A DNA stretch of 63,016 nucleotides, filler included, from Folioceros fuciformis (lineage: Eukaryota), in NCBI GenBank assembly GCA_049999805.1. It is 12 parts of 12 records of this genome, joined end to end, with 100 filler letters (N's around TTAATTAATTAA, not from the genome) between each part and the next. Parts side by side here need not be neighbours in the genome. Positions count along the whole stretch, not along the records: positions 12,593 to 25,591 come from JBNGIO010001479.1; 11 more parts are not named here. One strand, 5' to 3'. How positions within the stretch are numbered: the first letter of the stretch is position 1; every line of letters starts with the position of its first letter. Below, one piece after another: positions 2,672-28,599 of this stretch. A model generated the notes under the pieces. The model was not told where the DNA came from. It was given only the letters and a program-made list of their open reading frames with translations, and made no database searches. The position numbers and the translations under genes were made by a program.

Positions 2672-3250
2672 ATGCAGGATGACACGCAGGCTGAGGGGTT
2701 TGGAGCGAACGATGGCAGCGGCCCCCGGCTGTACAATCCGTATGCAGATCTGTATGGCGCTGTGGATGCAAGGTCGCTGGACACCATCTTCAAGCTTCCC
2801 AGCGCCCCGGAGCTGTTGTTCACGGAGGAGGCCGTGGCGCAGAGACGGAGCTGGAGCGAGAATTTGACCTACTACACGGGGTGCGGGTATCTGTCCGGGG
2901 CCGTGCTCGGAGGTGGCAAGGGGTTGATCGAGGGTTTGAGGGCGGAGGAAGGTGACACAATGAAGCTGAGGGTGAACCGGGTGTTGAACTCATCGGGTCA
3001 GAAGGGCAGGACGGTGGGGAACACGTTGGGAATTCTAGGTTTGCTTTATGCTGGGATGGAGAGCTTTAGCGCGCATGTTCGGGGCACGGACGACATTCTT
3101 AACAGCGTGACAGCGGGGCTCGGCACGGGTGCGATGTACAAGGCGGCGTCGGGCCCTCGCACGGCTGCCATTGCGGGGGCGCTGGGTGGAATGACTGCCG
3201 CTGGCTTGGTTGCTGGGAAGCAATTTTCGAAAAGATACCTTGCTATTTGA
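2672..3250 (+). CDS. TIM23: Mitochondrial inner membrane translocase subunit TIM23 (Tim17/22/23 family), single exon
   Basis: RLYNPY..L, LP..PE.LF.EE...RRSWSENLTYYTGCGYL, KLRVNRVLNSSGQ, GNTLGILGLLYAGMES, NSVTAGLGTGAMYKAASGPR are typical plant TIM23 motifs. Confidence 0.95.
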   Translation: MQDDTQAEGFGANDGSGPRLYNPYADLYGAVDARSLDTIFKLPSAPELLFTEEAVAQRRSWSENLTYYTGCGYLSGAVLGGGKGLIEGLRAEEGDTMKLRVNRVLNSSGQKGRTVGNTLGILGLLYAGMESFSAHVRGTDDILNSVTAGLGTGAMYKAASGPRTAAIAGALGGMTAAGLVAGKQFSKRYLAI

Positions 3251-4145
3251 GATCTGTTTGAGGTCGGCGAAGGGGTTTGCGGGAGATTTTAGACTGGCAG
3301 GTACTTATCTCAGGGTAGGCTGTGGAAGAATCGATTTTCTCTGTGTAGCACTCAGGTTTAGAGCACAAGACATGGCAGTGCAGCAGTTACGCCCTGCGGA
3401 GTTTCTGGTGCCTTCCAGTGCAGTGCAGTGCACTGCACTTTGTAGAGTGTTGAATGTGCATGCGATGCATCACTGCAGGTGACTCCTTGCCAGGCTCGCT
3501 GGACCCCTCCCACAGTGAAACAACTCCAGCCGGACTGGATGGGAGTGTCTGCAAGCTGAAAGAGTGGTATGTGCTCACGTCTGCAGCATGCTTCGTTCAC
3601 CATTACTTTCCTTCATTTGTCGAATTAATCTCGAGAGTTTTACAGAAAAATCCCGATTATGAGTATGTTCCGTGGACTATTTTCCGGGTACATTTAGGTC
3701 AAGAACTAGGTTAAGCGGATTGCTATAGATACATGTGGTTGCGAATTGTTCTCTTGGGCAGCTGAATTTTTCCTCCAGTCTACTTGTCTCCTCTACATTT
3801 CCGGTCCCGATGCCGCCTGTGGCATCAACAGCTACATTTTCAGTTGATACATGGAGCATAGCCTTCTTTTCTTATGCACTTTGCCGTGTCCTCCTCTAGT
3901 GAGAGCACTCACCACGACCAGAGACTGCGTCTAGGACCTGGCGGAGTAACTGCACTTACTTGCAGATGCTGCTCTGAGGCACCAAGGTAGGCATTGTGGG
4001 GCTGTTCCATTGTTCCGTGCTTAGTGAATTCGTCGGAATTGGAGTTGACTGGTCATTGGACTGGGCTTGTAAGTTGTCAGGGCCAGCTGAACTGTAAAAG
4101 TAGGTACAATATCATGTACCGAATTTGATTTCGAGAATGCAAGAT

Positions 4146-4525
4146 CACGTGACCTCCTTCTCTCCCCTCTCTCCTCGTCGTCAACACTCCCCTCGGCAGG
4201 GACAAGTGTGTTCAGCTATCTGTCTGAGAACAGGCAGTGTTAGTGTCTGAGGCGGCTCGCATTCTGGATAGACGACTCCGATTTCCTTGCGTGGATGGCA
4301 CAGATCAGCCTGATGAGCCAATTGTGATTTTCTCCTGCTGGTTTGCGTGGTGTTATCCTGTTGCTCTTCCCTGACGACAGGAAGATAAACCTCACCGCTG
4401 CTGCGAGTGTGTGCCCTCCTGGACTCTCATCTTCGCACCAGCCCCACTGCAAGTTCCATCTTTTTCCTGCCAGCTGTGCTTTCTCTTTGAGCTCTGCAGA
4501 AGCCGTCACCGAGCTTGCGCACGTG
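4146..4525 (+). promoter_or_regulatory. G-box/ABRE-like CACGTG motifs upstream of the AWPM-19 gene
   Basis: CACGTG at 4146-4151 and 4520-4525; AWPM-19 genes are classically ABA-induced. Function is inferred only. Confidence 0.3.
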
Positions 4526-4756
4526 TTCTTGAAGCTTGATCTTCTAAGTATAAGGAGGTGCAGTTCTGAGAATTGCGGATACCCCGTGTCTTGAATTGTC
4601 CAAAGACGGTGGTGGGCGGTAGTGCTTCGTTTCTGAGGCTACGTTATCGATAGGACTTACGCCTGCTGGGAATCAATCTTGCGGAGCCGACAGCTGAGAA
4701 AGACCTGTGCAAAAGAAACACCTGTGGTTCGACCTGCGGAGACGAAGGGGCTAGCC

Positions 4757-5669
4757 ATGGCGATGGGAGCTGGCCGGGGAATGCTAGCCGCGCTTCTGGT
4801 TATCAACTTCCTTGCGACCTGCGTGGAGCTGGGCATAGCGAGCTGGGCCATAAATCGTTACATCAACCAAATCGGGTCAATACCGTCTCCGGTCGGTGGG
4901 GTGGGAGGTTTCACAGCTATCGGTGGTATGTTTCAGACATTCGCTCTCACCTTCGCTCGCGATATGTGTGAACAATCTCGTCCTGCTGTGTCCAAGTCTT
5001 CTTGCGAACTTCTGATAATCAAATCAATGTACGTAAAAATCTGCACTGCAGGCAATCCGGTGACACCGATTTTCGTTACTGTGGCCCTCATTTCTGGAGT
5101 GGTCGCAGCGGCTTCAGTTTTCGCTGCCCTCCATCACGTTCAGGTCTGGAGGTGGGAGAGTCTAGCCACAGCTCAAGCTACCAACTTGATCGACCTGATG
5201 TTGTCGCTTTTGGCTCTCGGGTAACGATATGATCCAGACGTCGGGGAAGTTTTGTTTCTTAATCACTCTATTGTGAACTGGGTATCCAGAAACATCCAAG
5301 TTTTGTCAAGTGAACTGGACGCTGACAAGCTTCTGTTGTATTCCAGCTTTGCTTCTAAGGAGATCAACTACGGCCCTCGTGACAGGAGGCTGGTGAGTCT
5401 GCAGACTCTTTCCATTTTGTAGGAACGCTCCCTCTAAACATTAGTCCCTCTCTATGCATCACGGTTTGCCACCTACAACTATCGTTGTGATTTTGCAGAG
5501 GTGTCTGGAAGCGTTTGTCATCATTCTGGCTGGACTCAGATTGCTGCAGGTGCTTCTAGTCCACTCAGGGATGTATGGGGAAAGATTTGGACCACGTTTC
5601 AAAGAGACTGCGCCAGGTGCAGGCCCAGTGGAACCTCAGAAGGGAGCTGCTGCTACAGCCACCGTCTAG
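4757..5669 (+). CDS. AWPM-19-like (PM19L) plasma membrane protein, 4 exons
   Basis: Exons 4757-4925, 5052-5220, 5347-5392, 5499-5669 (GT-AG, phases consistent). Motifs LLVINF...GIASWAIN, GN..T..FV..ALISGVV..AS...LHHV..WR.ESLA, GFASKEI..G.R.RRLR.LEAFVIIL. Confidence 0.92.
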
Positions 5670-6330
5670 AGCCTGGATCTGGGACCTGGGATAACTAGAA
5701 TCAAAAGTTTGTGTGCCAGGAATATGTATACTGAACAGCACCAAACAGGTCTTTCCAATCGAAGCTGATAGCTCTCTCTGTGCTTTATAGGAAGAGTTGC
5801 TGCTTCGACGTCTTGTGCAGATCCCTAATCCAGTTCGGGTAGACGTAGCCTAAATCATGCAGGTGTGGTTTGTCAAGTTACAGTACAAGTCTTGTGCAGG
5901 TCTTTAAAACAGTTTAGAGTCGCTTTGTCCACCCAAACTTCGGGTAGACGAAGAAGGGTACATCGTGTAGATAAGAAAACCCACAATATAGGTGAATGAG
6001 TAGACATGCTCGTCACACCTCAACCTGGAAACCCTTTGAACAATTGGATATCATGCTGTCCAGTATGCAGAGGGAGAAAGGCCAATAAAAAAGAATTATT
6101 TACTTTAAACCCTTGCAAATATCAGAGCTGTCCGCCATGAAATACCGAGTAACATCTACTCTCTGCCAAAATTTTGCCTGCGACATCCTAGTATATCATA
6201 CGCTGATCCAGTATCCCGAGCTTGTGACCAAGAATTCCGAAAATGTGAAACAGTCATACCACCACCAGCCAGTTCATCACAACAGACACCAGCGAGATAG
6301 GATCACACATGCTCCGCTAGGCCATCTGCT

Positions 6331-7374
6331 CTAAGTGGCATATTCATCTTCGACACTACGCTTCTTCGGTGGAGGGTTGCCTCCTGCAAGGTAAACGTAA
6401 GTATAGAATCCGAACATCGCAGCACTAGCCAAGGCCACGAGAGCAGTAGGGAAAATTCCTCCAGTGATCTTAAACCGCCGGATCTCTCGGACGCAAATTG
6501 CCAGAGCTATCACGCCTTGGCCCTGAATGTATGGAAGGGAGGACTTGCCCTGCCTCCACGCCTTAAGACTTGAGACGCTGAGGAACAAAATAAGGCCCCC
6601 CAGGAACAGACCAAATCTGAGAGCAGCAACACTGCCTGAAACAACAAACCACAAAACACCACCTCCAGTGAGTAGAGCTCCGTATGGAATACCAAGGCAG
6701 AAATCATGAATCCTGGCCCAGTTCTCGGGCCTTCCAGACTCGAAATGAGCATCCAGAGCTGTCTCAGCAATGTCCCTGATCGGCTCAGGACCGGACTCGG
6801 CAATGAGAAGCAAGTTAGCCTTGCTCTGGCCAGCTGCTTCCTGCGCGGAAGCTGCTAGGGCAACCCTAGCCCTCTCTGCATGATCCCGCAACTGCTCGGT
6901 CGCGTCCCGCAACTGTGCCAACGCCCGGGCTGCAGATTCCTCTAGGGCCATAGCAGCTCCGGCTTTTTCCGCCTGATCCCGGAGCTGCTCGGTGGTTTCA
7001 CGCAAGATAGCCAAGGCCCGTTCCGAGGACTCATCGTAAATCACGCCCTTGAGCTTCTGCACTTCCTCGGCGAGCCGATCCACGGCCTGAGTCCAAGCCT
7101 CCTTGGACTCCTCATCTGCCTCCGTAGCCTCAGGTTCGTCGATCCTTGCATACGCCGCCTCATCCTGGGTGGAAGCACCAATTCTCCACCTCAAAGCACT
7201 GAGATTCCCCTTCAAGCTGCTCCCGGCTCCAGAGTTCCACTGTCCTGCGCAACGCCGCCTCCCGGCCAGCTTCCACTCACAATGCAGGGCATGCAGGGAC
7301 TTCCTTCTCGCCACGCGCACACACAGGGACGCAGACCCGCCTCCGATCCCCGAGCCGGACAGCAAACCAGGTTC
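6331..7374 (-). CDS. FAX3: FATTY ACID EXPORT 3-like chloroplast TMEM14 protein; intronless over the visible part, 5'-truncated by the contig edge
   Basis: C-terminal Tmemb_14 domain (IHDFCLGIPYG...GG...RFG..LGG..L..S...W..GK...YLAGGNPPPKK) after an Ala/Glu-rich coiled-coil and a transit-peptide-like region; frame is open to the linker. Confidence 0.85.
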   Translation of the reverse strand, partial: EPGLLSGSGIGGGSASLCVRVARRKSLHALHCEWKLAGRRRCAGQWNSGAGSSLKGNLSALRWRIGASTQDEAAYARIDEPEATEADEESKEAWTQAVDRLAEEVQKLKGVIYDESSERALAILRETTEQLRDQAEKAGAAMALEESAARALAQLRDATEQLRDHAERARVALAASAQEAAGQSKANLLLIAESGPEPIRDIAETALDAHFESGRPENWARIHDFCLGIPYGALLTGGGVLWFVVSGSVAALRFGLFLGGLILFLSVSSLKAWRQGKSSLPYIQGQGVIALAICVREIRRFKITGGIFPTALVALASAAMFGFYTYVYLAGGNPPPKKRSVEDEYAT

Positions 7375-7474
7375 NNNNNNNNNNNNNNNNNNNNNNNNNN
7401 NNNNNNNNNNNNNNNNNNTTAATTAATTAANNNNNNNNNNNNNNNNNNNNNNNNNNNNNNNNNNNNNNNNNNNN
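7375..7474. other. Artificial contig linker
   Basis: 44 N + TTAATTAATTAA (stops in all six frames) + 44 N. Confidence 0.99.
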
Positions 7475-7475
7475 C

Positions 7476-8279
7476 TCCATCCCTGTTGATTGGAGCAAAG
7501 ATGCAAATGTGTGCTTGGCACAGGTTCAAGCCAGAGCAGAAGTATTTCAAAGAATTCTTCCCATGGCTATGGATAATTTGGCTGTGGCCCAGCATCGGGA
7601 CCAGCTGAGGTATGCTTATACGCGGGGGGGCTCGTGGAAGCCCAAAGGCCGCAAGTTTGCATCTGGAGATTACGTGTACTTGCAGCGCAGGCCTGCAAGC
7701 ACGTTAGATGTCAGCACAGGAAGGCTTATCCTGCGAGTTGTCCAGGTTGGTGAGCAAGGTGTGGTTGAACTTGAAGGAAGAGATGGCAGAAGGTGCAAGG
7801 AACACATGAAGCACTTGGCTCCATGCCATTTGCCTGATCTGGATACACGAACTGTGCCTCAGACCTGGACGCCACCAGCAGATTTGCCCTGTGAGGAGTG
7901 TGGACACACAACTGACGACGAATTCATGTTGCTATGTGACAGGTGTAACCGTGGTTACCATCTGTTTTGCCTCAAACCGGCACTGGACAGTGTTCCAGAA
8001 GAAGAATGGCTATGTGATCACTGTAATGTGCTAAGTGTGAACGTGGCTCTTACAGAAGGTGATACTGAGGTTGTCTTAAATTCACACACGTTGGAAGCTG
8101 AAACAGCAGTTGACAGTCTCTCTGGATTCAAGCTGCCCAGTGAGATTACGATTACACAGGAGGCATAAGAAGACCCATCAGATGATGAGGATCTAGAAGA
8201 TGACGCCATTCCTCCTCCTCGGTCAGAACCACCGTCAGTGTTGGACAAGCTACGTTCTCGCTGGTGGGGACGTTGGTAA
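7476..8279 (+). mobile_element. 3' end of a Ty3/Gypsy pol: integrase C-terminal region followed by a PHD finger
   Basis: AMDNL.VAQHRD..RYA..RGG.W.PK.RKF..GDYVYL...LRVVQV...GVVELEG...H...LAPCHLP resembles a Gypsy integrase tail. C4HC3 PHD (CEEC...MLLCDRCNRGYHLFCLKPALDSVPEEEWLCDHC) at 7890-8024. TAA at 8166-8168 is probably premature, as the frame continues to 8279. Confidence 0.85.
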
Positions 8280-8357
8280 GTAGTTGTTTGTTTTCCTAGG
8301 CCAAGTTGGTCTAAACAATTTTGTGGGAAACCAGGTGGCTAGGCCTCCAAGTTTCCC

Positions 8358-8615
8358 AGGGGGGCTGTTGACGGGTCCCGGGTCTGCCTCTCTTAGGCAA
8401 ACCTAGTCTCTTTTTGTAGCCTTGCTCTTGGCCATAGGCCAAGGACAAATTAAGGCTAGGATTGTTGCAAACCTAGTCTCTTTTTGTAGCCTTGCTCTTG
8501 GCCATAGGCCAAGGACAAATTAAGGCTAGGATTGTTGCTCCTGGGCCGAAGGCCAAGGAGATCGCAGGCAGGCGGAAGCTTAGTGACCTAGCTTGGTAGA
8601 CAGGCTAGGTAGGCA
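8358..8615 (+). mobile_element. Polypurine tract and probable 3' LTR of the PHD-bearing element
   Basis: AGGGGGG at 8358-8364, then TGTTG at 8366; the CA end is uncertain (8602 or 8615). Confidence 0.55.
8397..8538. repeat. 70-bp tandem duplication (2 copies) within the putative LTR
   Basis: gcaaacctagtctctttttgtagcc...ggctaggattgtt begins at 8397 and again at 8467. Confidence 0.95.
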
Positions 8616-9180
8616 TGCAGCTATGCGGCTGCTGCGCGACACGTTCGTCTCAAATGAAATGTTCACAAACTCTTGGAAACTTGAGACAAGTTGGAGAAGA
8701 ACTTCGCTTAATCCGACCACAATCTGCATCTTCCAGTCCTTGTAATTCTTCTCCGAAGAACATGCAACAATCAGGAAGCATTTTCATCAAGGCAGCAATG
8801 GATTAACTTTCATTTAACTGTCACCCTATTCCACTCGCTTCATTACCGAAACCGTAATTATCGACATTCGTGATGTGGATTTATTTGAGAATTTCTTGGC
8901 CAACTCTACTCGTTTAAGGTCTGTGTTTCACATCGAGGCCTCCAAACCTCACCCCCTAGACGCTTCTCGAACGTATGGTGTAGGCGGCTACATATGACGT
9001 TGTCGTCGCATGTGGAATAAAGACCCGAAGTTGAAGCTGTGTACGTGCGGGCCAGACCTACGGACTCTCATTCGAGCTGTGGTTGATCGTCTCGACTTTA
9101 AGGCGTAGTTGACCGAGCTGAGGCTTATTTGTGTTGTGGATTGGAAGGGAGAATTGCCTGCAACAAGACGTAATCAAATC

Positions 9181-9924
9181 ATGATGTTGAGTAGCGTAGG
9201 GAGGGTAGGGGCAGGTGCTATCAAGAGCAGCAGGTTTGGCGCGCAAGGGGGTGTTGCTTGCAGGTGGTACCATGAAAGGGTGGTGGATCACTACAACAAT
9301 CCTCGCAACGTAGGCTCGTTCTCGAAGGAGGATCCAAACGTTGGCACGGGCCTCGTGGGAGCACCTGCCTGCGGAGATGTGATGAAGTTGCAAATTAGGG
9401 TTGATGAGGACGGCAAAATCGTTGATTCCTGCTTCAAGACCTTCGGCTGCGGCTCCGCGATTGCCTCCTCCTCTGTCGGTATGGCTTGTGGTTTGCTCTC
9501 GTGTTTGTAGTTTCTCAGTCTGAGCTTGCACTGCCGGGGCTTCGATGATCTACTACTTGTTTTCCTAGGTTTTCGCTCACCGTCGTGCTGACTTATGGCA
9601 GTTACGGACTGGGTCAAGGGGAAGCAAGTGGAGGACGTGGGCAGCATAAAGAATAGGTGCAGTGGAACAAGTGTTCTGTCCATGATTGAACTCTTGTTTG
9701 CTTGTGCTTGCTAATTTCCTATGATTCCTGCTGATTTCCTTTTTGTTTGGTTTTGATGCAGTGACATAGCGAAGCATCTCTCGCTTCCTCCAGTGAAACT
9801 GCACTGCAGCATGCTAGCAGAGGATGCAATCAAGGCCGCTGTGAAGGATCTTCAGGATAAGAGAGAAAAGCTCAAAATTGGTCCAGAGGGTCAGGACGAG
9901 GTGCTAAGTTCAGCATGCTCCTGA
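9181..9924 (+). CDS. ISU1: Mitochondrial iron-sulfur cluster scaffold ISU1/IscU, 3 exons
   Basis: Exons 9181-9478, 9602-9656, 9762-9924. YHERVVDHYNNPRNVGSF, GAPACGDVMKLQI, FKTFGCGSAIASSS, LPPVKLHCSMLAEDAIKAAV; presequence-like N-terminus. Confidence 0.97.
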
Positions 9925-16640: not shown

Positions 16641-16659
16641 ATGGCTACGGGTTGTGTGT

Positions 16660-17543
16660 TCTCTTCCTCACAGGTGCAGAGCACCCCTTCCACTAGCCAC
16701 AACAATCGCAGAGCTATGTCATACAGCTCTCAACTAACCAAGGATCTTCCTAGTCCTCTTGTCATGAGAGAACAGCATGCCAAATCAGGCCTTCATCGAT
16801 TGGATGTCTCCAACCACAACGCCTAAATTCAGCACATGGAAGCTCACACCTGAAAATTGTCTCTTGAGAGAGACGTAACAAGGTCCCTTATACATCTAGT
16901 CTTGGAGTACCATTACTGCCGCAGCCTTTAGAGTCTTAAGAAATGATTATACCTTCCTAGCACGCTTTGAAAGTCAACAATCTTTGGTTCAAAATCATTA
17001 GCTTACTATCCTTTAATAAAAAACCTAACCTAATATGCTCCCCAAACTAGCGTGCTCGTCCTCACTGCGGCCGTCTTGGCCTTCGGTCCCTTGTCATCCC
17101 CCTTGCTTTCTGGCCCCTTCATTGATTTGGGAGATCTTCCCATAACACCTCCACTTCACTCCCACTATCCACAGCTCTCTCTCCTCCTAGGAACTCTTCT
17201 CGGCTCTTCAATACTGGACAGCCACACCATGTGGCCTTCCACCCAAGCCCGCACCTCCTCTTCCATCATCTCCTCCAGCCTCACATGTGAAGGGTACGCC
17301 TCAGCGCCCGTTCGCAGGAACCATTGATAACACCCTGTGGTTGTTAAAATGTGCAGCCAATTGTTCTTGCCCCCTCTTGTTCCAACCACCACATACACAT
17401 TTAGAGCAAGCACGCGCTTACCTTACAATTGGAGGCCAGGGACATGGGTATCCTCATCCCTACATCCCAGCACAATATGGCCCCCTACTAAAGAGGTCCT
17501 TACTCTCTCCTCCCGTTGACACTCTTGGGGGGGGGCTGCCTCT
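16660..17543 (-). mobile_element. Repeat family copy B, part left of the Copia insertion
   Basis: Colinear with 52405-53287; encodes ...LHILTTTGCYQWFL...LEEMMEEEVRAWVEGHMVWLSS on the minus strand. Confidence 0.8.
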
Positions 17544-17742
17544 TAAAGCAAGTGTGGATCATTTAGGGGCACGAGTGGGTACGAGCGAAAGCGCGAGAGC
17601 GCAGCAAAGAAGAATGAAAAACGATTATTATTTTCACAGGAAATTGCTGAATATATACAATGGTGATAAGTTTGTTGTAACTATTCATAAAACTACTAAA
17701 GCATATTCATCCTAACATATAGGTGAATTAAGTATTTCTTCA
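17544..17742 (-). repeat. Copia 3' LTR (TG...TA termini)
   Basis: About 18 differences from the other LTR over ~199 bp by manual count (~91% identity); adjacent to the PPT. Confidence 0.93.
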
Positions 17743-17946
17743 CTCCCTCTTAGTTGCAATGAACAGACTAAGGTAAAACATGAAGATAATAATATTGTCT
17801 TAAACACAGGAACCCTGATTCGGGTTCAAGACAAAACTGAAAAGGAATCTACTTGAGATCCAATACACTAGTTGTTACGCTCCTCGCTCCTCTGTCCTCT
17901 ATCCTCTGGCCTGCCTATTGCGCTCCAGAATTCAGCTACAAATACC

Positions 17947-18805
17947 ATGGCGCTCCACACCTCCATCTTCGAAGTCTGTGATCTAGCTGCTATCCTCCTG
18001 GGTTGGTTTGCAATTTGCTTCATAGGGATATGGCTGCTCCGCTATAAGCACTGCTGCTTACTCACTGATGAACCTATGGCGAAGGCTCCCAATGGAGTTG
18101 AGTGCATTCACTGTGGAAGGGAGTGGATACCTACTTCCAAATACTCCCCTCGATAGTGGACTCTACATAGCTCTATTTGCCAGCACCCACCTACGGACAT
18201 CGACGCTCCCAAAACAGCATAGCAGCAAGCCTTGAAGGACTACAACAAGGTATACTTGAAGACCTGGACACTTACTGGCGACAAGGTTCAGCCTTATGAC
18301 ACACCTCGTGAAGTATCCTCTGAAAGAAGACTGACCAAGGAGCACTACTAGGCCGCTATATTGAAGGCCATGCCAAAAGAGGAAGATGAGTTGGAATACT
18401 ACTACTCGTACAGAATCAGCTCGGGAGCAAAAAAGACTCTCAGCAAGAAGGACCTCGGGAGCAGAAAAGACTCTCAGCAAGAAGGACCACGTCATATTGA
18501 TGCGGGCCACAAGGATCACTGGCAATGATGGTACTCCCTCTGTAGGGGCAAGACAGAAAAAGAGAAAATATGACGACCCAGATGAGGAAGGTCAGGCGCT
18601 TACAAGTACGTGTGAGCTTCATCCACCCTACCTTCCTGCTAACCTACCTCCCCTCAAGCATGCTCGACTCACCTTTACTTACCCTGTTGTGTGGTCTGCA
18701 GGTCCATTGGATGAACTAAAGAAGACGCCACTGCGAACACTGAAGGCAAAAATCAGCGAGAAAGGCTATCACGTAAACCTAGGAGCATGTTGTAAGGAGG
18801 AGTAG
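17947..18805 (+). pseudogene. Disrupted antisense extra ORF inside the Copia, between RNase H and the 3' LTR (~274 aa reconstructed)
   Basis: A single frame after reading through three TAG codons (18154, 18220, 18349) and removing one copy of a 34-bp duplication (18421-18454 / 18455-18488). Confidence 0.65.
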
Positions 18806-18829
18806 ACTAGTGGGATGTCCCTGTCCCAA

Positions 18830-21800
18830 GAGTAGGTGATATCTGATTGATCCCAGCTGCAGCCATGTGTTTGAGATGTAGCAATTTTGGAAGTGCCTAA
18901 GTCAGGACATCAGCAACATTCTCACCTGTTGGAATATATTGGACATCTACCTCTCCTATGTCATAAGCTTGTCTGATAAAATGATGTGTGATCTCTATAT
19001 GCTTGGATCAAGCATGGAAAACCAGGTTCTTCATGAGTGCAATGGCTGATTGATTGCCACACCACAACCTTGAGGCACCTGCTGGCAATTGTTGAAGTCC
19101 TCTAAGGAATGAACGAATCTAGATTACCTCATGAGCTGCTTGGGATAACGCACCATACTCAGCCTTCGTCGAGGAAAGACAGATTGTTGTCAACTTCTTA
19201 CTCGACCAGGACACCACTGAGCCTCCCAACAGATTGTAATAAGCTGCTATACTCCTTCTAAAATTTGGATTGCTTGCCCAGTCTGCGTCGCAGAAACCAA
19301 CAAGCTCTAATCCATCAGTCTGCCTAGTGTCCTTCAAGCCTAACCGAGGAGTTCCTTTGAGATAACGAAATATTCTCTTCACAATTGCCCAATGCACCTC
19401 TCCTGCGCTCTCTAAAAAATGTGAAACATTGCTCACTGCCTTGGATATATCTAACCTAGTCCATGATGCTAGGTACAGAAGACTACCAACTGCCTGCCTA
19501 TATGGGCGAGTAGACATAAGGTCCTGTTTCTCCTACATGGTAGGGCAATGTTCCTTAGACAGCTTCTCACTGGTAGACATAGGTGTAGATATAGGACATG
19601 CTTCAGCCATGTTGAATTGCTGCAGGAGCTGAGTGACAAATTGTTCCTGATGCAGCTTAATTATATGCATGTCTGCCGAAAACTGGAACTGTACACCAAG
19701 AGAAACGAAGTTGCCCAAGGTCCGACATATAAAAACGAGATAATAGAACACTCTTAATCCTAGCCATCAAGATCAAGGAAGTACTAAGAAGAAAGTTATC
19801 GTCCACATAAACTGATAAAATTAGAAAGTCGTCACCATCCCAAAGTATATAAACAGTACTATCAGCATCTGAGCATGTAAATCCTAATTCGATCAGCAGA
19901 GCATGAAACGTTTCATTCCAAGCTTAGCTTGATTGTTTGAGGCCATAAAGTGTTTTGAGCAACAAGCAAACTTTCTCCTCGTCCATCACAAAACCCTCAT
20001 GCTGCTGCATGTAAATCTCCTTTTCTAAAGTACCATTAAGGAATGTTGTCTTGACATCTAGTTGGTGAACGTGAAGACCAAAATGAGCAGCTAGAGATAG
20101 CAATATTCGGACAGAGGTAGACTTAACTACGGGTGCAAATGTTTCATTATAGTCTAGGCCAGCAACCTGGCTATACCCTTTGGCAACTAATCTAGACTTG
20201 TAGCAACCAACATTGCCATCAGTGTTAAGTTTCTTTTTAAAGACCCATTTACAAGCCACTGGTTTACGACCTTCTGGCAAATCTACAAGTTTCCAGGTAC
20301 CATTGGCAATGAGAGAATTATACTCGAAGTGTATGGACTCCTTCCAGAACTCTGCCTCATGACCGTAATGGCTTCTAGGAAGGTGGCTGTTTCAGATCTA
20401 TTAAAATTGGGAACAGAAGTCTTGGAAGTTACACTTGCAACGAAAGGAGGTTCTATCCACTCATGGCGAGGAGGTCGATTCCTAGTGGACCTGCAAAGAA
20501 CAGGTGAAAAGAGTGTATCCTCGATAAGTATGGGGTCTGGATCTGCAACTACTAGTAAATCAGGAGGCACTGGAGGATCAACTGCTACAGGTTCATCAAC
20601 AAGAGCAGACTCAGCAATTGGAAGTAAGGTAAACTCATCTGATGCAGTAGAAGATGACACAGACGGTGATGGTTGCTGAAGTTGCGGAGGTAACTGGTTG
20701 ATCTGCTCCCGTGAAGCTGAAGTAGTTGCATCCTCGAAGTAAAAAATGGAAACATCAGTGTCCTTATCAGCAACAAAATCAACTTCGTCATCTACACCAT
20801 GAATAGTGGCGGGTGGCAGCACAGAGGGAGGAGATAACAAGCTGTCATTTCGATGAAGTAAGGCATTCTCATGGAAAATTACGCTGTGAGAATAAGAAAC
20901 TTGCCGAGGGCTAGGATCAGATAGCTTGTAACCCTTGCCTTCCTCAGCATAGCCAACAAAAATTTGACGAACTACCTTCGGGTCGAGCTTACTCCTAAGC
21001 TGAGAGGGAACAGGTGCATGTGCAGGGTTGGCAAAAATCCTCATATGTGTGATACGAGGTTTCTTATGCGTCCAGCGTTCGTATGGTGTGATGAGGCCAA
21101 GCTCCTTTGTAGGAAGGCGATTCTGCACATAATTAGCTGCAACGAGAGCTTCTGCCAAGTATCCACGAGTCAACCCAACAAAAGACAAACTGGAAAGTGT
21201 AGCCTCTTGTAAGGTGCGATTCCTTCGTTCAGCAAAGGCATTTTGGGCAAGCGTATATGGGACGGTAAATTGATGGACAACTCCCTCTGCTGCACAAAAG
21301 TCCAAAAAAGCATGACTTAAATACTCTCCACCATTATCTAACCTAAAAATCTTGAGCTTGCAGCCTGTTTGTTGCTGAGCCATAGTGACAAAATCTTGAA
21401 AACAGGTGAAGGTGTCACTTTTGCTATGGAGAACATAAATTGTGCAATACCGGCTCCACTCGTCAATAAAGGTCAGAAAGTAATGAGCACCACCAAAAGA
21501 GGCTGTGGACATGGGTCCACAAAGGTCACTATGAACTGTATGGAGAAGACTAGGTGCTCGTGAGAGGTTTTGATCTCGGAAAGGCTGTGAGATAACTTTG
21601 TTGACTTGACAGGAATCACAAAATGCATGGTTTTCGAAAGAGAAGGACAAAGAATCTCTAAAAACAGTGTTGTTCACCAACAGGGACAAACGCTGAAAGT
21701 TGACGAGTCCCAAACGACAATTCCCCAGCTGAGTAGGAGATAGGGATAGAGACTGGCTGACTTGAACTGTAGTTGGTTGTGATAGCGTTTTGACATTCAA

Positions 21801-23111
21801 GAGGTACAAATCGTTAAAGGGAGTGCTAGAGAAAATCTCATCCCAGTCAACTATAGTGGAAATTGCGCAACCAGAATGGTCAAAGCAAATTCTACAAGAG
21901 TGCTCTTTAGAAAGCTTAATCACTAACATTAAGTTTTTGGTCATGGCTGGGACGAATAGCACACCTATCAGAATCATGGTGGTTGAATTGGGCAACTCAA
22001 TGGTAACTAAACCTGGACCCTTGATGGATAAGCCACTGTTGTCTCCTAACAAGACAAACTGTTGGCTGTCAGAAGAAGGAACAAAGTGATGGAAAGCACA
22101 CCTATCGTAGCAAATATGACTGGTGGCCCCCGAGTCCAAAAACCACATATCATAATGGATTTGAATTGAGGCCAAGCAAACAGCAAGGATAGAAAGTGAC
22201 TTAGCAATAGTTGTTGGCTTGGCTGTGGCTAGATTGGATTCGGGAGCAATCCCTTCCTTACGTGGTTCTCTAGCATGCTTCTTCCTACATACCTTCTCAA
22301 AATGCCCTGGTATCTTGCACCAGTCACAAGTAAACGTCTTCCTTTGGAGATTAGGTTGCTTGGCTGTTGGGTAGCCACCTTGACCTTGTCCTCCTCGACC
22401 TTGTCCACGAAAGCTCCCTCTGCCACAGCCAGAAAACATAACTCTTGAACTGGAATGCTGTTGTGCAGTTTCCTTTCCTTTGTGAAAACCCTTGGTGCGC
22501 TCCTCTGCTAATAAGGCCCCAATCAACTCGTCCAGAGAAAGGGCTGGAAGGCCTCCTACCACTGCAGAGGAGGCATGAGCAAACTGTGAACTCATGAAAT
22601 GACAGTAGCTTTGAGGTAAGGAAGCTAGCAGATTGGTCCCAGCTTGTTCCTCTGTGAGAGTTGTGCCACAATATGCCAAGGTAGCATGTGCTGTCCTAAA
22701 GCGGTTCATATAGGACTCCACTGACTCGTTGTCCTTCATCCTCATGCCATAAAAATCCCTATGTGCAAACACTTGAGATGCATTACTCCTGTCCTTATAA
22801 ATCTGGCTAAAACTATGCCATACAGCCGAAGAGGAGATAACACCCAATGTGTGAGGCATCATGTTTCTGTCGAGGGAAGCAATGAGAATCAAACGTGCTC
22901 TCCTATCCTTTCATTTCCAGTCGAGAACGTCGACAGCATTAGTTGTTGTTGCAGTAGGACATCTCTCACTCCCATCTACCACAGACATCAGCTCGCTTTC
23001 CTCAAATATCCGGGTCAATCTCAGTGACTACGTATTCTAGTTGTTTCCATTGAAACGATCCTTATCCCTAAACTCGATCTTCAAGGCAGGTTGAGGAAGA
23101 GCTGCTGCCAT
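18830..23111 (-). pseudogene. Copia gag-pol polyprotein, with stops and frameshifts in the gag N-terminus, RT and RNase H
   Basis: Zinc knuckle CDWCKIPGHFEKVC; protease WFLDSGAT; integrase HSDLCGP / FIDEWSR / DNGGEY / AERRNRTL in the 869-aa ORF 20283-22892; RT CKWVFK...RLVAKGY...QLDVKT; RNase H GFCDADWA...VSWSSKK...SSTKAEY. Confidence 0.95.
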
Positions 23112-23853
23112 AGTTGATGTGGATGCCCTGATTGAGGATGATGCTGATGTAGATGCTGCGGTGGTAGAAGTGGTAGAAGCAGTGACAGTACCTCTAGTTG
23201 TGGTAGGTTGTGCTCTATAAGCTGCTCCAGGAGAGATCAGAGGTGTCTCCTCTCCAGGATGTTGTCCACGAGAATGGTAAGCAAAACCTTCCCGTGGCCT
23301 CCCCTCGCGAGCTCCTTATGTGGGTTCTCAAGAAAGACCTAATTCAAAGTTGAAATCCGGGCGCCTATAGCGTTCTTCAACGCGTGTTGGATCAGTATCT
23401 TGATCCAGCTCAACGATGCCGCTAGCATCTAAGTCAAACTCATCTTCTGAAGGGGGCTCCGGACGTCTCCTAGGCGGCATCACATCAAAGCTTGAACACA
23501 AGTTAGTAGGGTGTTGCTCCCTCACGATGAGCAGCTAGCAACTCCACAAACTGCATGCGCCGGGAGATTTGATGGCTTTGACATCGTTTTGTATCTGCCA
23601 GAGAAGGGTGTTGGACTCACGCTGCGCCTTGAACAGGTTGATCCGGCTGGAAGCCTCGGTGAAGATTGCCAGGATACTGATGTGTAATGATTCTCCTGGC
23701 AAGCTGTGCAGATGAAACCCGTTATGATGGAAGGAAAGTTGTTAGCGTCTCTGTTGACCTTCCGCCTGGGCACACGTGAAGCAATCCCTCTCTTAGGCAC
23801 CGTGCCTCGCTGCACATGGGGGCTCGTGTGGATTGCCTACGGCTCTGATACCA

Positions 23854-24051
23854 TAAAGCAAGTGCGGATCATTGAGGGGCACAAGAGGTACGAGCGAAAG
23901 CACGAGAGCGCAGTACAGAAGAATGAAAAACTGTTATTATGTTCACGGGAAATTGCTGAATATATACAATGGTGATAAGTTTGTTGTAATTGTTCATAAA
24001 ACTATTAAAGCATATTCAACCTAACGTATAGGTGAATTAACTATTTCTTCA
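23854..24051 (-). repeat. Copia 5' LTR (TG...TA termini)
   Basis: Directly followed on the minus strand by the PBS TGGTATCAGAGC. Confidence 0.93.
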
Positions 24052-25591
24052 CCTCTTGCATTCCACGGGTGTTGCATGCTCCCCTGCCATGGTTTCGTCG
24101 GTGGTTGGTTCCACTACTCCCATTCCTCTACACTACGGTGGCTGGTTTAGCCACTCCGGTTGTTGTTTCGGCAACCATGGCCAATACCACCATAGTTGCT
24201 GTTCTGGCAACCGTGGCCAATCCCACCACGGTTGCTACTTCGGCCACCACGGCAGCTGAATTCTTTCCCTTCTTCGGTCTTCCTGCCTCACTCATAACCT
24301 TGGCTCTTGTCTCATCCCGTTCCCTTTAATATCTCTCAGCCAGCCTTTTGAATTTCTCCAATGTTGGTGCTGGCTCCTTGGTTGTTAGGGCTTCCTATTT
24401 CACCAGGGCTTCTTAATGAATCCGCCATCACCTTCAACTCCTTCTGTATTTACCCAGCAATTCATCGCTTGCTTGCTTACAGCCCTTTGCTACCTTGTTT
24501 CTACCTTCAACTTCTTCCAGCCTTTCCTTCAGCAGCTTCTCCTGTTGCCCCTGCATGCTGAGCCATGTGAACGTCATTGCGGCCTGGTTGAGAAGGTTTG
24601 CGTGGGTTTAGGCCATAGTTGAGGTCAGCCCCTGTAAATCACTAGTCTGGGTTGTTCTCGTACCCATCTTTTTCCACATCCACTCCCTCACTCGAGCCAT
24701 GCCTCATGCTTCCACTCTTGCTGGACAGTTCAAAGGATTAGCCCTGAAAATATCCTTCCACTCCTTGGAGCCTCTGTTGCCAATGCTAACCATCTTGCAC
24801 CAGCTACTGACTCATTACCCCTTGGCATTTCATTTTTCAGCATTGCGGAGGGAGCAGCCCACCTTTTTGCTTTTCCTTGTTCTTCTTATGGGTTCGTGGT
24901 AGCCTTGGATCTAGTGATCCGAGACGGGGTTGCCACCCCATGTTCGCGTGCTATGGTCTTCTCTCTCTTCGCCACGCTCTACCCTATTGCTTGGCCTTTT
25001 CTCTTCCTAGTCGTCGCGACTTTCCCCTTAGAATCCCCTAGTGGCTCAAGTTCCCAACTGCGGGAGTCCTCCCCGAGACATCTTTAGGCTCTTCCTCCTC
25101 GACTTTGACTTCTCTAACTCGCTTCTAACTATGAAGGGAATACACCACTTCCACTTTGTTAAGCACTTGGTGTGAGCGAAAAGGTGAATAAAGAAGGGTG
25201 AGATGAGGGAGGGATGGGGAGAAGTCATCAACAAATTGACTCTCCTCATAGGCACGCTCGAAAATAATTCGATTCTAGTCCACTTGTGCACCAATGACCA
25301 CCTCATGGAGAAAGACCGGAAAATGGTCAGCCATGTAGTCTAACTTCTTGCTCTACAAGAAGCATAGGATCCATTTAGCCAACCCCACCAATTATGCTGA
25401 AATCAGTTGCCGAACCACCCATCCATAGCCAACCCCACCAATTGTGCTGAAATCAGTTGCCGAACCACCCATCCATTGTTAGTTCTCACCTTTCTGGCTT
25501 CATAAGCTAGGCTATTGTAGCTTTCAAGGTCTGATAAGATGGAGTGATGATGATAGTGTTTCCTATGGCTACTTTTGACTCGCTCCCTCCC
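24052..25591 (-). mobile_element. Repeat family copy B, part right of the Copia insertion
   Basis: Minus-strand fragments GLAKWILCFL..KK.DY..DH..VFLHEVV.G..VD*.RIIFER..EES and KRVREVK are paralogous to 15234-15695; contains a 50-bp tandem duplication at ~25370-25477. Confidence 0.75.
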
Positions 25592-25710: not shown

Positions 25711-25955
25711 GGGCGCCACGCAGGTGCCACCTCGACGCCATGTGAGAGCCACTTGGGTGCCACCGGGCGCCACATCAGCGCCATACGGGCCCCACCTAGG
25801 CGCCATGTGAGCGCCAGCGGGCGCCACATCAGCTCCGCTTGGGCACCACCTAGGCGCCACTTGGGCGCGACTTGGCACCACTTGGGCGCCACGTAGGTGC
25901 CACTTGGGCACCACTAAGGCGCCACCTAGGCGCCACCGGGCACCACGTGGGTGCC
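25711..25955. repeat. GC-rich degenerate tandem array built on GGCGCCAC / GGTGCCAC / GGCACCAC
   Basis: Many short GG(C/T)(G/A)CCA(C/T) units spaced ~11-14 bp apart, upstream of a Copia gag. Confidence 0.85.
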
Positions 25956-26243
25956 CGTGACGCGCGAAACGAGCGTGCCAGTGAAGCGAGGACCCGATTG
26001 ACGAGCGCCGGAAAGTGAACAAATCGCAGACGCCGGGAGCGAGAGTGTGGGCGCCGTATTGACCCCGGCTGAGGAAGTCAGGATCTCGATCAGACGTAGG
26101 AGGACATTCCTGTTATGAGCGACAGAGGCCCAAGTTGTGGACATACGATTCGGAAGAAGTTGTGAGGGTAACCTGTAGAATCTACTTTTCATTTCGACCA
26201 ATTTCAAACTAGCTTTTTGGTTGATTTGGATCGATTTTGAAGC

Positions 26244-28599
26244 ATGACGTCCTCAGAAAACATCATGTTCAATATCGAGAAGTTAGATGGTACTAACTTC
26301 CCGTTCTGGAAAGAACAAGTGTATAATGTTCTAGTACAGAAGAAGCAGATCAAGCCCATCAAGCTGCTAGGAGTGAAACCTGTTAGCATGACTCACGATG
26401 AGTGGCAGGATCTAGATGAGCTTGCTAGGTCTACCATCATGCTAACAGTGTCGAAGTCGATATACTTCAACGTGAAAGACAAGACCACAAGTTTCGAGCT
26501 ATGGCAGAAGCTGTGTGACTTGTATGAGAAGCAAAGTGCGGCTTCTCAGGTGTATTGGTTGAAACAGCTAGTGGACTTGAAGATGAAGGAAGGGACGAGG
26601 ATGTCCGATCATCTGAATGAGTTCAATACCATTTTCAGCCAACTCTCATCTCAAGGTATCTCGTTCCCAGATTCCGTGAGAGCTATGTTTCTGTTGGTCA
26701 CATTACCAGAGAGCTGGGACACCTTCCGTACGGCTCTGAGTAATTCCGCTCCTGCCAGTGTTCTTACCGTTGTAAATGTAGAAGGTAGCCTGTTAACAGA
26801 GGAGGTGAACAGGAAGAATATGGAACCTTCAAAAGGTTCTAATGCCCTCATGGTGAGAAGAAGGTCCACTTCAAAGGGGAAGTACAAGGAGCGAAGTTCT
26901 TCCCGTAGCAAATCTCGTTGTCGTAACAATGTTGAGTGTTACCATTGTCACAAGAAGGGTCACATCAGAAGGGACTGCGAGAAGTTCAAGAAGGAAAAAG
27001 GCAAGGAGAAGAAGCAGAGCGACAACAAGGCAGATTCGAGTATCGAGCGTGATGAGGTGAACTCTGTTGACGATGAAGATGTTCTTATCTCTTCTTCTTT
27101 TGGTTCTGCACAACTGACAGCCATGGAGAGTCACTTATTCTCTAATTGGATAATTGACTCTGGAGCATCTTTCCATGTTACTCCGCATAGGGAGTGGTTT
27201 AGCACTTATGATGCTACTAGGAAAGGACGTGTTCGTCTTGGAAATAACTACGCGTGCGAGATAGCAGGCGTTGGTGATGTGCAGCTGAAGTTCGACAACG
27301 GATCTTCATTCACACTAAAGGATGTCAGGCATGTTCCGAAGTTGACCAAAAGCATGATTAGCGCAGGGCAGTTGGATGACGCTGGCTACCACTGTTGGTT
27401 TGGAGATCGTTCGTGGAAGATCTCCAAAGGTTCTCTTGTGATAGCTCGTGGATCAAAGTGTGGCACTTTGTACTCACTTCAGGTAACCACTGTCAAGGAT
27501 CATGTGATTTGTGTAGCGGAACAGCCAAGTGTTTCCTTGTGGCATAGTCGGTTAGGACATATGTCTCAGAAAGGAATGAAGATCTTATCTCGTTTTGGTT
27601 ACGTCCCTGCTCTTGACTTCTCCGATTTCTCCGTGTGTGAGCACTGTTTGTATGGAAAACAGACGAAGTCACCACATGGAGCAAGAGGTAAACACAAAAG
27701 TAAACCTCTTGAATTGGTTCACAGTGACATTTGTGGACCTATGCCCACTGTGTCATTAGGCGGTGCATCTTATTTTGTCACTTTCATTGATGACTTCTCA
27801 CGCAAGGTGTGGGTTTATCCTTTGAGGAAAAAGGATGATGTTCTGACAGTGTTTCAGAAATTTGTCACCCTTGTGGAGAATGAGTCTGGCCTCCGACTGA
27901 AGTGTCTAAGGACAGACAATGGGGGAGAGTATGTCTCGAAGGCTTTCCAGTCATTCTGTGATTCCAAGGGAATCAAGAGAGAATTGACTGCACCGTATAC
28001 TCCTCCCCGGTGTGGCTGAGCAGATGAACAGGACCATCCAGGAGAGGATGCGTAGTTTGTTGTCAAACTCTGGATTGCCTAACGGATTTTGGGCAGAAGC
28101 GGTGGTTACGGCAGTGCATCTTATTAACAAATCTCCTAATAGGGCTGAGGATGAACAGGTTCTAGAGGAGATGTGGTCTGGAAAGAAGCCGTCATACAAA
28201 CATCTACGAGTGTTTGGCTGCGAGGCATACTACCATGTTCCGAAGGAGTTTCGCGACAAGTTGGCTCCTAAGTCAAAAAAATGTATTTTTCTTGGCTGTG
28301 GTGAATCTGGTGAGATGGGATACCGTCTCTGGGATCCGAAAGCCAAGAGGATGGTTCGCAGCAATGATGTGTTCTTCAATGAGACCAAGATGCACAAGAA
28401 GCCTACTCAAACTGTGGAGGTGCGACGGGTGGTCTTCCAAGAAGATGGACTTGACCGTCCCGCGCAGGCTGAACATCGTGATGTGCAGGAACAAGTTCCT
28501 CCACTTGTAGACGAGGAGAGAGTGCAACCAGCTCCGGTCGAGGCGCTAGTGCTTCGTAGGTCAGGAAGGATCTCACGTCCTCCTGACAGGTATGTTGCA
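26244..28599 (+). mobile_element. Ty1/Copia (Tnt1/Tork-like) gag-protease-integrase, 3'-truncated by the contig edge, with one frameshift
   Basis: IEKLDGTNF..WK, zinc knuckle CYHCHKKGHIRRDC, WIIDSGASFH, LWHSRLGHMS, HSDICGP, FIDDFSRK, RTDNGGEY. A small deletion at ~28008 breaks the TPxQNGVAE motif; the frame resumes VAEQMNRTI...FWAEAV...HLRVFGC. Confidence 0.95.

Follow-up and report, generated by a model that had tools for sequence, protein, structure and literature searches.

What occupies the space between the end of pol and the polypurine tract of a Ty1/copia element, and could it once have been a gene read from the other strand? The question is raised by 1.06 kb of sequence in a 63,016-nt window of joined parts from the Folioceros fuciformis assembly (GCA_049999805.1), in which an initial annotation saw an antisense gene hidden inside a Copia element. 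Some Ty3/gypsy lineages regularly carry antisense accessory genes, which are barely recorded in Ty1/copia. If true, this one would be a Ty1/copia reverse accessory gene comparable to those of the Tat-clade Gypsy elements, and, at 1 kb, a compact system in which to study the function of antisense accessory genes. The reading that we prefer, tentatively and with a little less than even confidence, is that the stretch is a decayed, lineage-specific reverse extra ORF of a Ty1/copia element, belonging to the REXdb class eORF-3'R.

The setting of the stretch is clear. A complete but dead Ty1/copia element of 6.5 kb occupies positions 17544-24051 on the minus strand (Table 1), with two LTRs, a 5-bp target site duplication, a primer binding site (PBS) beside the 5' LTR and a polypurine tract (PPT) beside the 3' LTR. 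The PBS is presumably complementary to the 3' end of initiator tRNA-Met. All domains lie on one strand in the Ty1/copia order gag - protease - integrase - RT - RNase H, as assigned by Pfam and, for the RNase H-type C-terminus, from the translation. An empty site is also present, in that an uninterrupted paralogous copy of the flanking repeat runs across the insertion point. The Copia setting described in the initial annotation stands, with domains on the minus strand and the pol stop, PPT and 3' LTR as in Table 1. The two LTRs, aligned over 199 nt, differ by 17 substitutions and 1 indel. Rfam recognized no RNA family in 17400-19000, and a repeat search found no inverted repeats suggestive of a nested element.

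Table 1. Features of the Copia element and of the frame opposite its 3' end, in window positions.
Feature	Position	Strand	Basis or remark
Left target site duplication CCTCT	17539..17543	.	identical 5 bases at 24052-24056, immediately outside the LTRs
3' LTR, 199 bp	17544..17742	-	91% identity over 200 nt with 23854-24052
Polypurine tract (PPT), minus-strand AAGAGGGAG	17743..17751	-	sequence; adjoins the 3' LTR, the position expected in an LTR element
Leader before the antisense ATG, 195 nt	17752..17946	+	short upstream ATG frames at 17752 and 17780; CT-rich tract 17878-17912
Antisense frame, part 1	17947..18411	+	ATG in ACCATGGCG context, hydrophobic segment, CxxC...HxxxC, three TAG
Antisense frame, part 2	18365..18805	+	146 open codons, stop TAG 18803-18805; RQKKRK patch and C-terminal tail
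34-bp tandem duplication, 2.0 copies, 97% matches	18420..18488	+	TRF; shifts the frame by +1
Copia pol stop codon	18807..18809	-	minus-strand translation ends ...GINQISPTLGTGTSH*; convergent with the antisense stop, 1 nt apart
RT-RNase H region of pol, with 5 premature stops and 2 frameshifts	18807..20391	-	RVT_2 E 6.5e-63; translation
Gag-protease-integrase frame, 875 codons open	20283..22910	-	Pfam Retrotran_gag_2, Pol_BBD, gag_pre-integrs, rve, SH3_retrovirus
Primer binding site (PBS) TGGTATCAGAGCCG	23840..23853	-	sequence; beside the 5' LTR
5' LTR	23854..24051	-	alignment with the 3' LTR
Right target site duplication CCTCT	24052..24056	.	sequence

On the plus strand, a frame can be followed from the ATG at 17947 to the stop at 18803-18805, broken by three TAG codons (18154-18156, 18220-18222 and 18349-18351; TAG translated as X) and by a 34-bp tandem duplication. 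The initial annotation had joined two plus-strand ORFs into a single frame of about 274 residues by reading through these codons and removing the duplication, and each of these parts was found where it had been placed. In an ungapped repeat comparison the duplicated units are 18412-18445 and 18446-18479 (88% alike), at the point where the two antisense frames overlap, and as 34 is 3 x 11 + 1 the duplication fits the +1 offset between them. Subtracting it from the 859 nt of the frame leaves 275 codons including the stop; as the sequence now stands, no open piece is longer than 146 codons, the next being 94. The ATG lies in a good context, with A at -3 and GC at +4/+5. A sense env-like ORF was also considered for the pol-to-PPT stretch and was ruled out by the 13-20 stops in each minus-strand frame.

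How broken should such a frame be if it was intact when the element inserted? From the divergence of the LTRs, 825 nt of antisense frame is expected to have gained 1.2 new stops and 2.1 indels, and 3 and 1 are observed, or 4 breaks where 3.3 are expected. The corresponding values for the RT-RNase H part of pol are 2.3 and 4.0 expected and 5 and 2 observed. With 4 breaks in 0.86 kb against 7 in 1.58 kb, the antisense frame is as broken as this part of pol, which certainly was a gene, and its break count is consistent with decay since insertion from an intact frame. In the preferred reading that decay would have consisted of three transitions to TAG and the frame-shifting duplication. Decay biased towards transitions yields TAG more often than any other stop (share 0.45), and the duplication is young-looking and in the right phase.

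The same stretch may instead be a non-coding spacer between pol and the PPT, in effect a 3' untranslated region, in which a nearly open frame arose by chance and the motifs and neat ends are coincidences of a 63-kb scan. We consider this quite possible, if on the doubtful side. The agreement of the breaks with the decay expected of a former gene, and with the RT-RNase H part, argues against it, as do the exact coincidence of the frameshift with a tandem duplication in the right phase, the good start context and the end of the frame 1 nt from the pol stop. So does the identity of the stops: the stretch holds 24 TGA, 10 TAA and 10 TAG triplets, yet the stops in the antisense frame are all TAG, which has a probability of about 0.012 from the local triplet frequencies. 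The TAG stops, the start context, the abutment on pol and the motifs were, however, chosen post hoc.

Openness as such was compared with 1000 dinucleotide shuffles of 17752-18806. An ORF of at least 146 codons appeared in 20 of these, and a path of 859 nt with one free frame switch and no more than three stops appeared in 30 (3%). The best shuffle paths had a mean of 6.5 stops (sd 1.6) against the 3 seen in the antisense frame, so that its openness is marginally beyond chance. Within the window itself, 850 of 3440 sliding paths have three stops or fewer, real genes being among them, and these equally open paths favour a chance frame. The stretch is moreover stop-poor on both strands, with an opposite-strand ORF of 142 codons (18163-18591), which again fits a chance frame, but the translation of that ORF is rich in Leu, Val, Ser and Phe and resembles the reverse reading of a gene.

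Composition divides in the same manner. Third-base periodicity in the antisense frame is coding-like, position 1 being purine-rich and position 2 A-rich and G-poor, and only 11 of 2000 plain shuffles matched its chi-square of 17.9; of 1500 random frames built to be open, 103 matched it, so it lies within the range of open frames that arise at random. Codon usage is ambiguous. Log-odds for three 107-codon pieces of the frame are -5.3, +3.8 and +3.4, where real coding chunks score 5.3 (sd 4.8) and other chunks, each taken in its highest-scoring frame of the six, have a median of 2.8, so that the antisense frame can pass for the best frame of an arbitrary chunk. All told, the statistics for the antisense frame reach a level of a few per cent and are weak after allowing for selection. 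Its openness, break count and placement are nevertheless consistent with a decayed gene.

What would that gene have encoded? The strings singled out in the initial annotation, LAAILLGWFAICFIGIWLL, CIHC-x17-HSSIC, RQKKRK and DELKKTPLRTLKAKISEKGYHVNLGACCKEE, are all present in the antisense translation, one of the TAG codons falling within the x17. Three of these features are individually rare in the 126028 six-frame codons of the window, and their meeting in one frame speaks against chance: hydrophobic segments like this one (hydropathy 2.52 over 19 residues) number only 7, CxxC...Hx3C strings 8 and basic patches 26. The interpretation of the strings fared less well than the strings themselves. 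A SAP/HeH-like fold had been proposed for the tail, and neither the 146-residue piece nor the 34-residue tail matched any Pfam family at E up to 10; the tail likewise had no match at E up to 10 among PDB sequences, where the other antisense queries gave only noise (E 0.3-0.8). The proposed zinc finger found no Pfam family at E up to 10 with the antisense frame, and the first Cys of its CxxC is TAC (Tyr) in one related contig (18104 G>A). Transposase_28 (PF04195), SMC and other Pfam families gave no match in the frame either. A DNA-binding or nuclear function is thus backed by no domain, and the strong hydrophobicity of the N-terminal segment suggests a membrane anchor instead of a soluble nuclear protein.

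In the preferred reading the frame would once have been translated. The intact product would have had about 274 residues, beginning with a short N-terminus, a hydrophobic segment resembling a membrane anchor and then basic residues. Under the positive-inside rule, which is the basis for this predicted topology, the rest of the protein, hydrophilic, Cys-containing and partly basic, would be exposed to the cytosol or nucleoplasm. Other antisense extra ORFs suggest, by analogy, a regulatory or accessory role in the life cycle of the element.

Relatives of either half of the antisense frame were sought widely, and none was found in the Pfam, PDB, protein or contig collections searched, an outcome that fits a chance frame. 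A word search of 5.8 billion clusters yielded nothing for either half, near lengths being covered for the C-terminal one and both near and longer lengths for the N-terminal one. When the C-terminal half was run with HMMER against 1.84 billion representatives, the sole hit was a weak 30-residue match, repeated ninefold within one repetitive protein, and does not amount to homology. The Atlas search gave no usable match to the C-terminal half and, for the unbroken 69-residue N-terminal ORF, only sub-threshold scores below 0.9 to small phage membrane proteins. Scans of metagenome, viral and prokaryote contigs returned nothing or pattern-selected chance matches. Among these, nine prokaryote loci match the N-terminal ORF over the same 23 residues, selected by pattern, where a bacterial ORF of 1197 residues ends; the match lacks the second Cys and was set aside as chance. 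An RNase H query recovered 26 distant Copia loci from the metagenome contigs (identity at most 50%), and neither antisense half matched any of them, all five alignments returned having E of at least 1.8. The ORFs downstream of pol in these loci were a mixture of spacers and pol remnants and were discarded as a control. Inside the window, the C-terminal half aligned with 39504-39680 (tblastn, E 0.027, 32% over 60 residues), a tandem-repeat array, and the match was therefore taken as compositional.

A lack of homologues would be usual for an extra ORF, such proteins being highly heterogeneous according to the REXdb survey (Neumann et al. 2019, PMC6317226). That survey reports extra ORFs of at least 250 codons in 582 Ty1/copia elements, sorted into 45 mutually dissimilar groups, and similarity to any CDD domain for only 21.4% of extra-ORF proteins; the antisense frame would simply be another unrelated group of the reverse 3' class. 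A gene once read antisense in this family of Copia elements is thus a tentative reading, no homologue, intact copy or transcript having been obtained.

The stretch is not confined to this one insertion. Diverged copies are present in contigs from the same organism, in two of six sequencing runs from one study and one sample, which is possibly the source of the window itself. Run X4, putatively RNA, has no contig over 17400-18988, which has no bearing on expression. One contig spans pol and the pol stop and continues to 18614 with about 89% identity (149 other letters and 16 gaps in 1351 nt), and variants or indels occur among the contigs at 18086, 18104, 18132/18136, 17979-18028 and 18653-18731. 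The stretch is therefore a property of the family, not of a single copy. The differences themselves lean towards a chance frame: both in-frame substitutions are non-synonymous (18086, Ala to Val; 18104, Cys to Tyr, the first Cys of the CxxC), and two related contigs have frame-breaking indels, one skipping 77 nt and the other replacing 48 nt by 13.

A bolder version of the gene hypothesis has a family-wide antisense gene with its own start region behind the PPT, encoding a membrane-anchored protein of about 274 residues without relatives, perhaps with an intron (18591 or 18606 to 18701), and surviving elsewhere in intact copies under selection. We think this rather unlikely. If true, a conserved Copia example, membrane-anchored and without relatives, would extend such genes to a broader set of elements. 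A single broken and unmatched copy is a pointer to a family worth scanning and not a result.

The contigs also bear on a further origin for the stretch, namely that transduction or template switching placed host or foreign DNA behind pol in one sublineage, so that the stretch, once part of a gene, looks gene-like and never served the element. Transduction is one origin of additional ORFs according to a review, and the REXdb survey describes Copia elements as usually having little between pol and the PPT, the internal region of lineages without extra ORFs being almost all polyprotein (PMC6317226). One contig, of depth 146 and from a single run (X2), joins 17771 to 18885 and so skips 1113 nt, as if commoner relatives without the stretch may exist. 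This joint, however, is a matter of one contig in one run, with only 34 letters on its shorter side and the intervening letters unread. Against capture, there is neither a similar protein (the C-terminal half compared at all lengths, the N-terminal half with longer proteins) nor similar DNA elsewhere in the window, where no further copy of the pol-to-PPT stretch was found. Moreover, the frame fills the gap exactly, beginning with a start codon and ending 1 nt short of the pol stop, a fit that would be rare for a random fragment. Capture appears improbable on this evidence.

How does a reverse extra ORF in a Copia element compare with known systems? The initial annotation held that antisense 3' ORFs are known mainly from Ty3/gypsy, and the literature agrees: they are described for that superfamily (PMC7264820, PMC11963269, PMC4093653), and the REXdb survey puts the reverse 3' class at 1% of SIRE elements, with two small figures each, of ambiguous column, for Bianca and Ikeros, among Ty1/copia (PMC6317226). 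The Tat-clade reverse extra ORFs (eORF-3'R or aORF-3R), those of Retand, Ogre, Grande of maize (gene23), RIRE2 of rice and bean (ORF2), resemble the present frame in lying between pol and the 3' LTR, antisense to gag-pol. Their function is usually unassigned in these reports, some being nuclear or predicted to bind DNA (PMC7264820, PMC11963269, PMC4093653). The Tat elements have 2.9-6.6 kb between pol and LTR and ORFs mostly of more than 200 codons, whereas here the element is a Ty1/copia with 1.06 kb and a broken frame of some 274 codons. In Retand, Transposase_28 is reported in 97% of clusters, unlike the antisense frame here, which has none.

Measured against REXdb, the frame at 17947-18805 has the placement of an eORF-3'R, lying downstream of the polyprotein in reverse orientation, with the two-copy 34-bp unit as its sole tandem repeat. 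REXdb extra ORFs are uninterrupted over at least 250 codons, whereas the pieces here reach 146 and 94 codons, in an element of 6.5 kb that has 199-bp LTRs and a complete primer site of tRNA-Met type. A 2020 review reserves the term true additional ORF for one present in all or most copies of a family.

The env-like ORF of SIRE (Maximus) also belongs to Ty1/copia elements and also lies behind pol. SIRE env-like proteins are described as having membrane-protein-like features, as the product predicted here would. That ORF runs in sense, 74% of SIRE elements having an eORF-3'F (PMC6317226), whereas the present frame is antisense. The antisense gene of HTLV, with its promoter in the 3' LTR, likewise yields a protein read antisense from the 3' end of a retroelement; HTLV is an animal retrovirus, for which no sequence relation is expected, and serves as an analogy only, one that reviews invoke for a regulatory role.

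In our preferred reading of a decayed reverse extra ORF, the antisense transcript would begin either within the leader of 195 nt or within the 3' LTR. The TATATA near 17653, suggested in the initial annotation as an antisense promoter, is indeed present, but it reads the same on both strands and lies 84-91 nt from the 5' end of the LTR in the sense direction. It thus occupies the expected site of the sense promoter box and says nothing specific about antisense transcription. Any antisense promoter would have to be in or before the leader (17752-17946), the CT-rich part of which is made up of 7-nt repeats (TRF).

A structurally complete Ty1/copia element, old and dead, occupies 17544-24051 on the minus strand of the window. 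Over 199 nt, its aligned LTRs differ by 17 substitutions, of which about 11 are transitions, and by 1 indel. Both flanks, joined by script, align without a break to 53053-53358 at 74%, so the Copia element was inserted into another repeat and its boundaries are right. Decay within the element is uneven: the gag-protease-integrase frame has no breaks, although the LTR divergence predicts about 3.8 stops and 6.6 indels for it, whereas the adjoining RT-RNase H part is broken. This difference suggests either that a younger copy overwrote the intact part by gene conversion or that constraint acted on the 5' half.

The interval from the PPT to the pol stop is 1055 nt, and behind pol, opposite to gag-pol, runs a broken antisense frame (17947-18805). 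The initial annotation had joined two plus-strand ORFs into this frame by reading through three TAG codons and removing a 34-bp duplication. Reanalysis confirmed the construction, and every peptide string quoted from it was found in the translation; the observation is real and the description correct. The two frames share 18365-18528, with the duplication inside this overlap, and since 34 is 33 + 1, the duplication accounts for the offset between them. The antisense stop and the pol stop lie 1 nt apart, tail to tail.

Features of the Copia element and of the antisense frame within it
Feature	Position	Strand	Details
Flanking CCTCT	17539-17543 and 24052-24056		both element ends
3' LTR	17544-17742	-	LTR pair 91% identical over 200 nt
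PPT	17743-17751		purine run AAGAGGGAG; adjoins 3' LTR
Antisense frame start ATG	17947	+	context ACCATGGCG
In-frame TAG codons	18154, 18220, 18349	+	
Second open frame	18365 to stop 18803-18805	+	146 codons
34-bp tandem duplication	18420-18488		2.0 copies, 97% matches (TRF)
Pol stop TAG	18807-18809	-	
RT-RNase H part	18807-20391	-	5 premature stops, 2 frameshifts
RVT_2	downstream of 875-codon frame	-	Pfam
875-codon open frame	20283-22910	-	Pfam: gag, Pol beta-barrel, pre-integrase, integrase core, SH3-like domain
Primer site TGGTATCAGAGCCG		-	adjoins 5' LTR; presumably initiator tRNA-Met type
5' LTR	23854-24051	-	LTR pair 91% identical over 200 nt

An intron-like segment is also present on the plus strand within the antisense frame, with GT at 18591 or 18606, a CTAAC branch-like site, a pyrimidine-rich run, and TGCAG/G at 18697-18702. 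The candidate intron would be 111 or 96 nt long, both divisible by three, and an intron inside an antisense gene would outlast replication of the element.

The damage to the antisense frame fits a former gene. Half the LTR divergence corresponds to about 35 substitutions per 825 nt since insertion, and with the LTR transition bias 3.4% of substitutions in the host ORFs make stops. On this basis 1.2 stops and 2.1 indels were predicted for the antisense frame, and 3 and 1 were observed; the same calculation for RT-RNase H predicted 2.3 and 4.0, against 5 and 2 observed. The antisense frame is thus as broken as a stretch that surely used to be a gene. The stretch contains 24 TGA, 10 TAA, and 10 TAG triplets, yet all three in-frame stops are TAG, the likeliest stop from transition-biased decay (share 0.45). 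A reverse extra ORF, lineage-specific and now decayed, is the reading we favor, tentatively and with somewhat less than even confidence.

That the frame arose by chance within a non-coding spacer is a plausible if rather doubtful alternative; that it is a captured fragment we consider unlikely. The antisense frame exceeds chance only marginally. When the 1055 nt were shuffled 1000 times with dinucleotides preserved, an ORF of at least 146 codons appeared in 20 shuffles, and 30 shuffles allowed an 859-nt path that crossed at most 3 stops, one frame switch being free (mean 6.5 stops, sd 1.6). Equally open sliding paths number 850 of 3440 over both strands of the window, many of them on real genes or transposon remnants. 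The periodicity of the frame is gene-like (chi-square 17.9), matched by 11 of 2000 plain shuffles and by 103 of 1500 random frames open by construction. Codon usage, modeled on 3853 training codons from Pfam-supported frames in the window, says nothing either way: three 107-codon pieces of the frame scored -5.3, +3.8, and +3.4, whereas cross-validated coding chunks gave 5.3 (sd 4.8) and off-frames -6.8 (sd 5.4). When the highest-scoring of the six frames was taken from each of 135 other chunks, the median was 2.8. Each motif is rare in the six-frame translation of the window (126028 codons): segments that reach the hydrophobicity of LAAILLGWFAICFIGIWLL number 7, CxxC-x(10-25)-Hx3[CH] strings 8, and basic patches 26, but all three motifs had been picked after looking.

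Several details of the initial annotation are unsupported, namely a nuclear protein with a zinc finger and a SAP/HeH tail, transcribed from the LTR. Neither half of the frame matched any Pfam family at E up to 10; among PDB sequences the halves gave only noise (E 0.3-0.8) and the tail no match, leaving both domain readings without profile support. The first Cys of the CxxC is moreover Tyr in one related contig. The N-terminal segment has a hydropathy of 2.52 over 19 residues and is followed by RYKH; by the positive-inside rule it resembles a membrane anchor that would leave the remainder of the protein on the cytosolic side, an arrangement that fits uneasily with a soluble nuclear protein. The TATATA proposed to drive antisense transcription is identical on both strands and sits at the expected place of the element's own sense promoter box, and is thus no evidence for an antisense promoter. 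A transcript starting from it would include two short upstream ATG frames, at 17752 and 17780.

Word-indexed searches of 5.8 billion clusters found no relative of the C-terminal half at near lengths, nor of the N-terminal half at near and longer lengths. HMMER matched the C-terminal half to one of 1.84 billion representatives, a repetitive 998-residue protein that was rejected as a homologue: a 30-residue stretch (37% identity) recurs in it nine times, and this recurrence inflated the score. An Atlas search gave no usable match, and scans of metagenome, viral, and prokaryote contigs gave no relative; a match at the end of a bacterial 1197-residue ORF was rejected as pattern-selected chance. 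Neither half matched at 26 distant Copia loci (RNase H at most 50% identical), and no second copy of the stretch was found within the window.

Other copies were sought in contigs from two DNA runs of one sample, both of which contain the stretch, compared over 17400-24200 at a likeness of at least 80%. Diverged relatives are many (in run X1, 175 of 264 matching contigs are less than 90% alike). Summed depth over the antisense stretch in X1 is 20-42; for contigs that match the window exactly or almost so, it is about 7-12. One contig, at about 89% identity, spans pol and the pol stop and continues to 18614. The diverged contigs over the stretch show that it belongs to a family. Contig variants within the frame include 18086 C>T (Ala to Val), 18104 G>A (the Cys to Tyr change), a paired +1/-1 indel at 18132/18136, replacement of 17980-18027 (48 nt) by 13 nt, and a skip of 18654-18730 (77 nt). 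The copies glimpsed are decayed as well, and the few visible changes bear no sign of constraint. Commoner relatives may lack the stretch, judging from an X2 contig of depth 146 that connects 17771 to 18885, although its shorter arm is just 34 letters long. In a third run of the sample, X3, C>T (390) and G>A (296) far exceed other changes over 17400-24200, a pattern resembling a bisulfite-converted library.

For Ty3/gypsy elements, a 2020 review (PMC7264820) and a 2025 Retand paper (PMC11963269) describe antisense ORFs in the interval from pol to the 3' LTR. In a bean survey, 15 gypsy families have an antisense ORF2, and 2 Copia families have env-like ORFs in sense orientation (PMC4093653). The REXdb survey counts 582 Copia elements with extra ORFs of at least 250 codons and sorts these ORFs into 45 dissimilar groups; the supplement table puts the reverse 3' class at 1% for SIRE, and gives Bianca and Ikeros two small figures each, with ambiguous column assignment (PMC6317226). 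Among the papers listed by searches for antisense ORFs in Copia, no title or abstract opening announced one devoted to a conserved example. If real, the antisense frame would add a new and unrelated member to a heterogeneous class that is already known, and would stand out mainly by its location in a Copia.

The repeat surrounding the element has, for its part at 16659-17524, a 79% similar copy at 52405-53270 that continues unbroken past the insertion point to 53358, and contigs of the same organism also connect the two flanks of the insertion. A second, unrelated Copia fragment (26241-28599, plus strand) encodes gag, protease, pre-integrase, integrase, and an SH3-like domain; no LTR pair was found for it. 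Regularly shaped masked stretches recur along the window: 22 runs of 44 N form 11 pairs, the two members of each separated by 12 bases, from 7375-7418/7431-7474 to 60521-60564/60577-60620, none within the antisense finding. Host-gene-like frames at 2651-9507, 37939-38478, and 46833-47636 match Tim17, AWPM-19, Tmemb_14, PHD, NifU_N, and CFAP97, along with a weak DUF26 (Stress-antifung) match. The combination of plant-specific families and a cilia/flagella protein points to a land plant that has swimming sperm, for example a bryophyte, lycophyte, or fern. Tandem-repeat arrays lie at 25711-25959 (GC-rich 11/54-nt units), 39233-39700 (units of about 84 nt), and 54510-54737 and 62531-62701 (units of about 57 nt and 84 nt).
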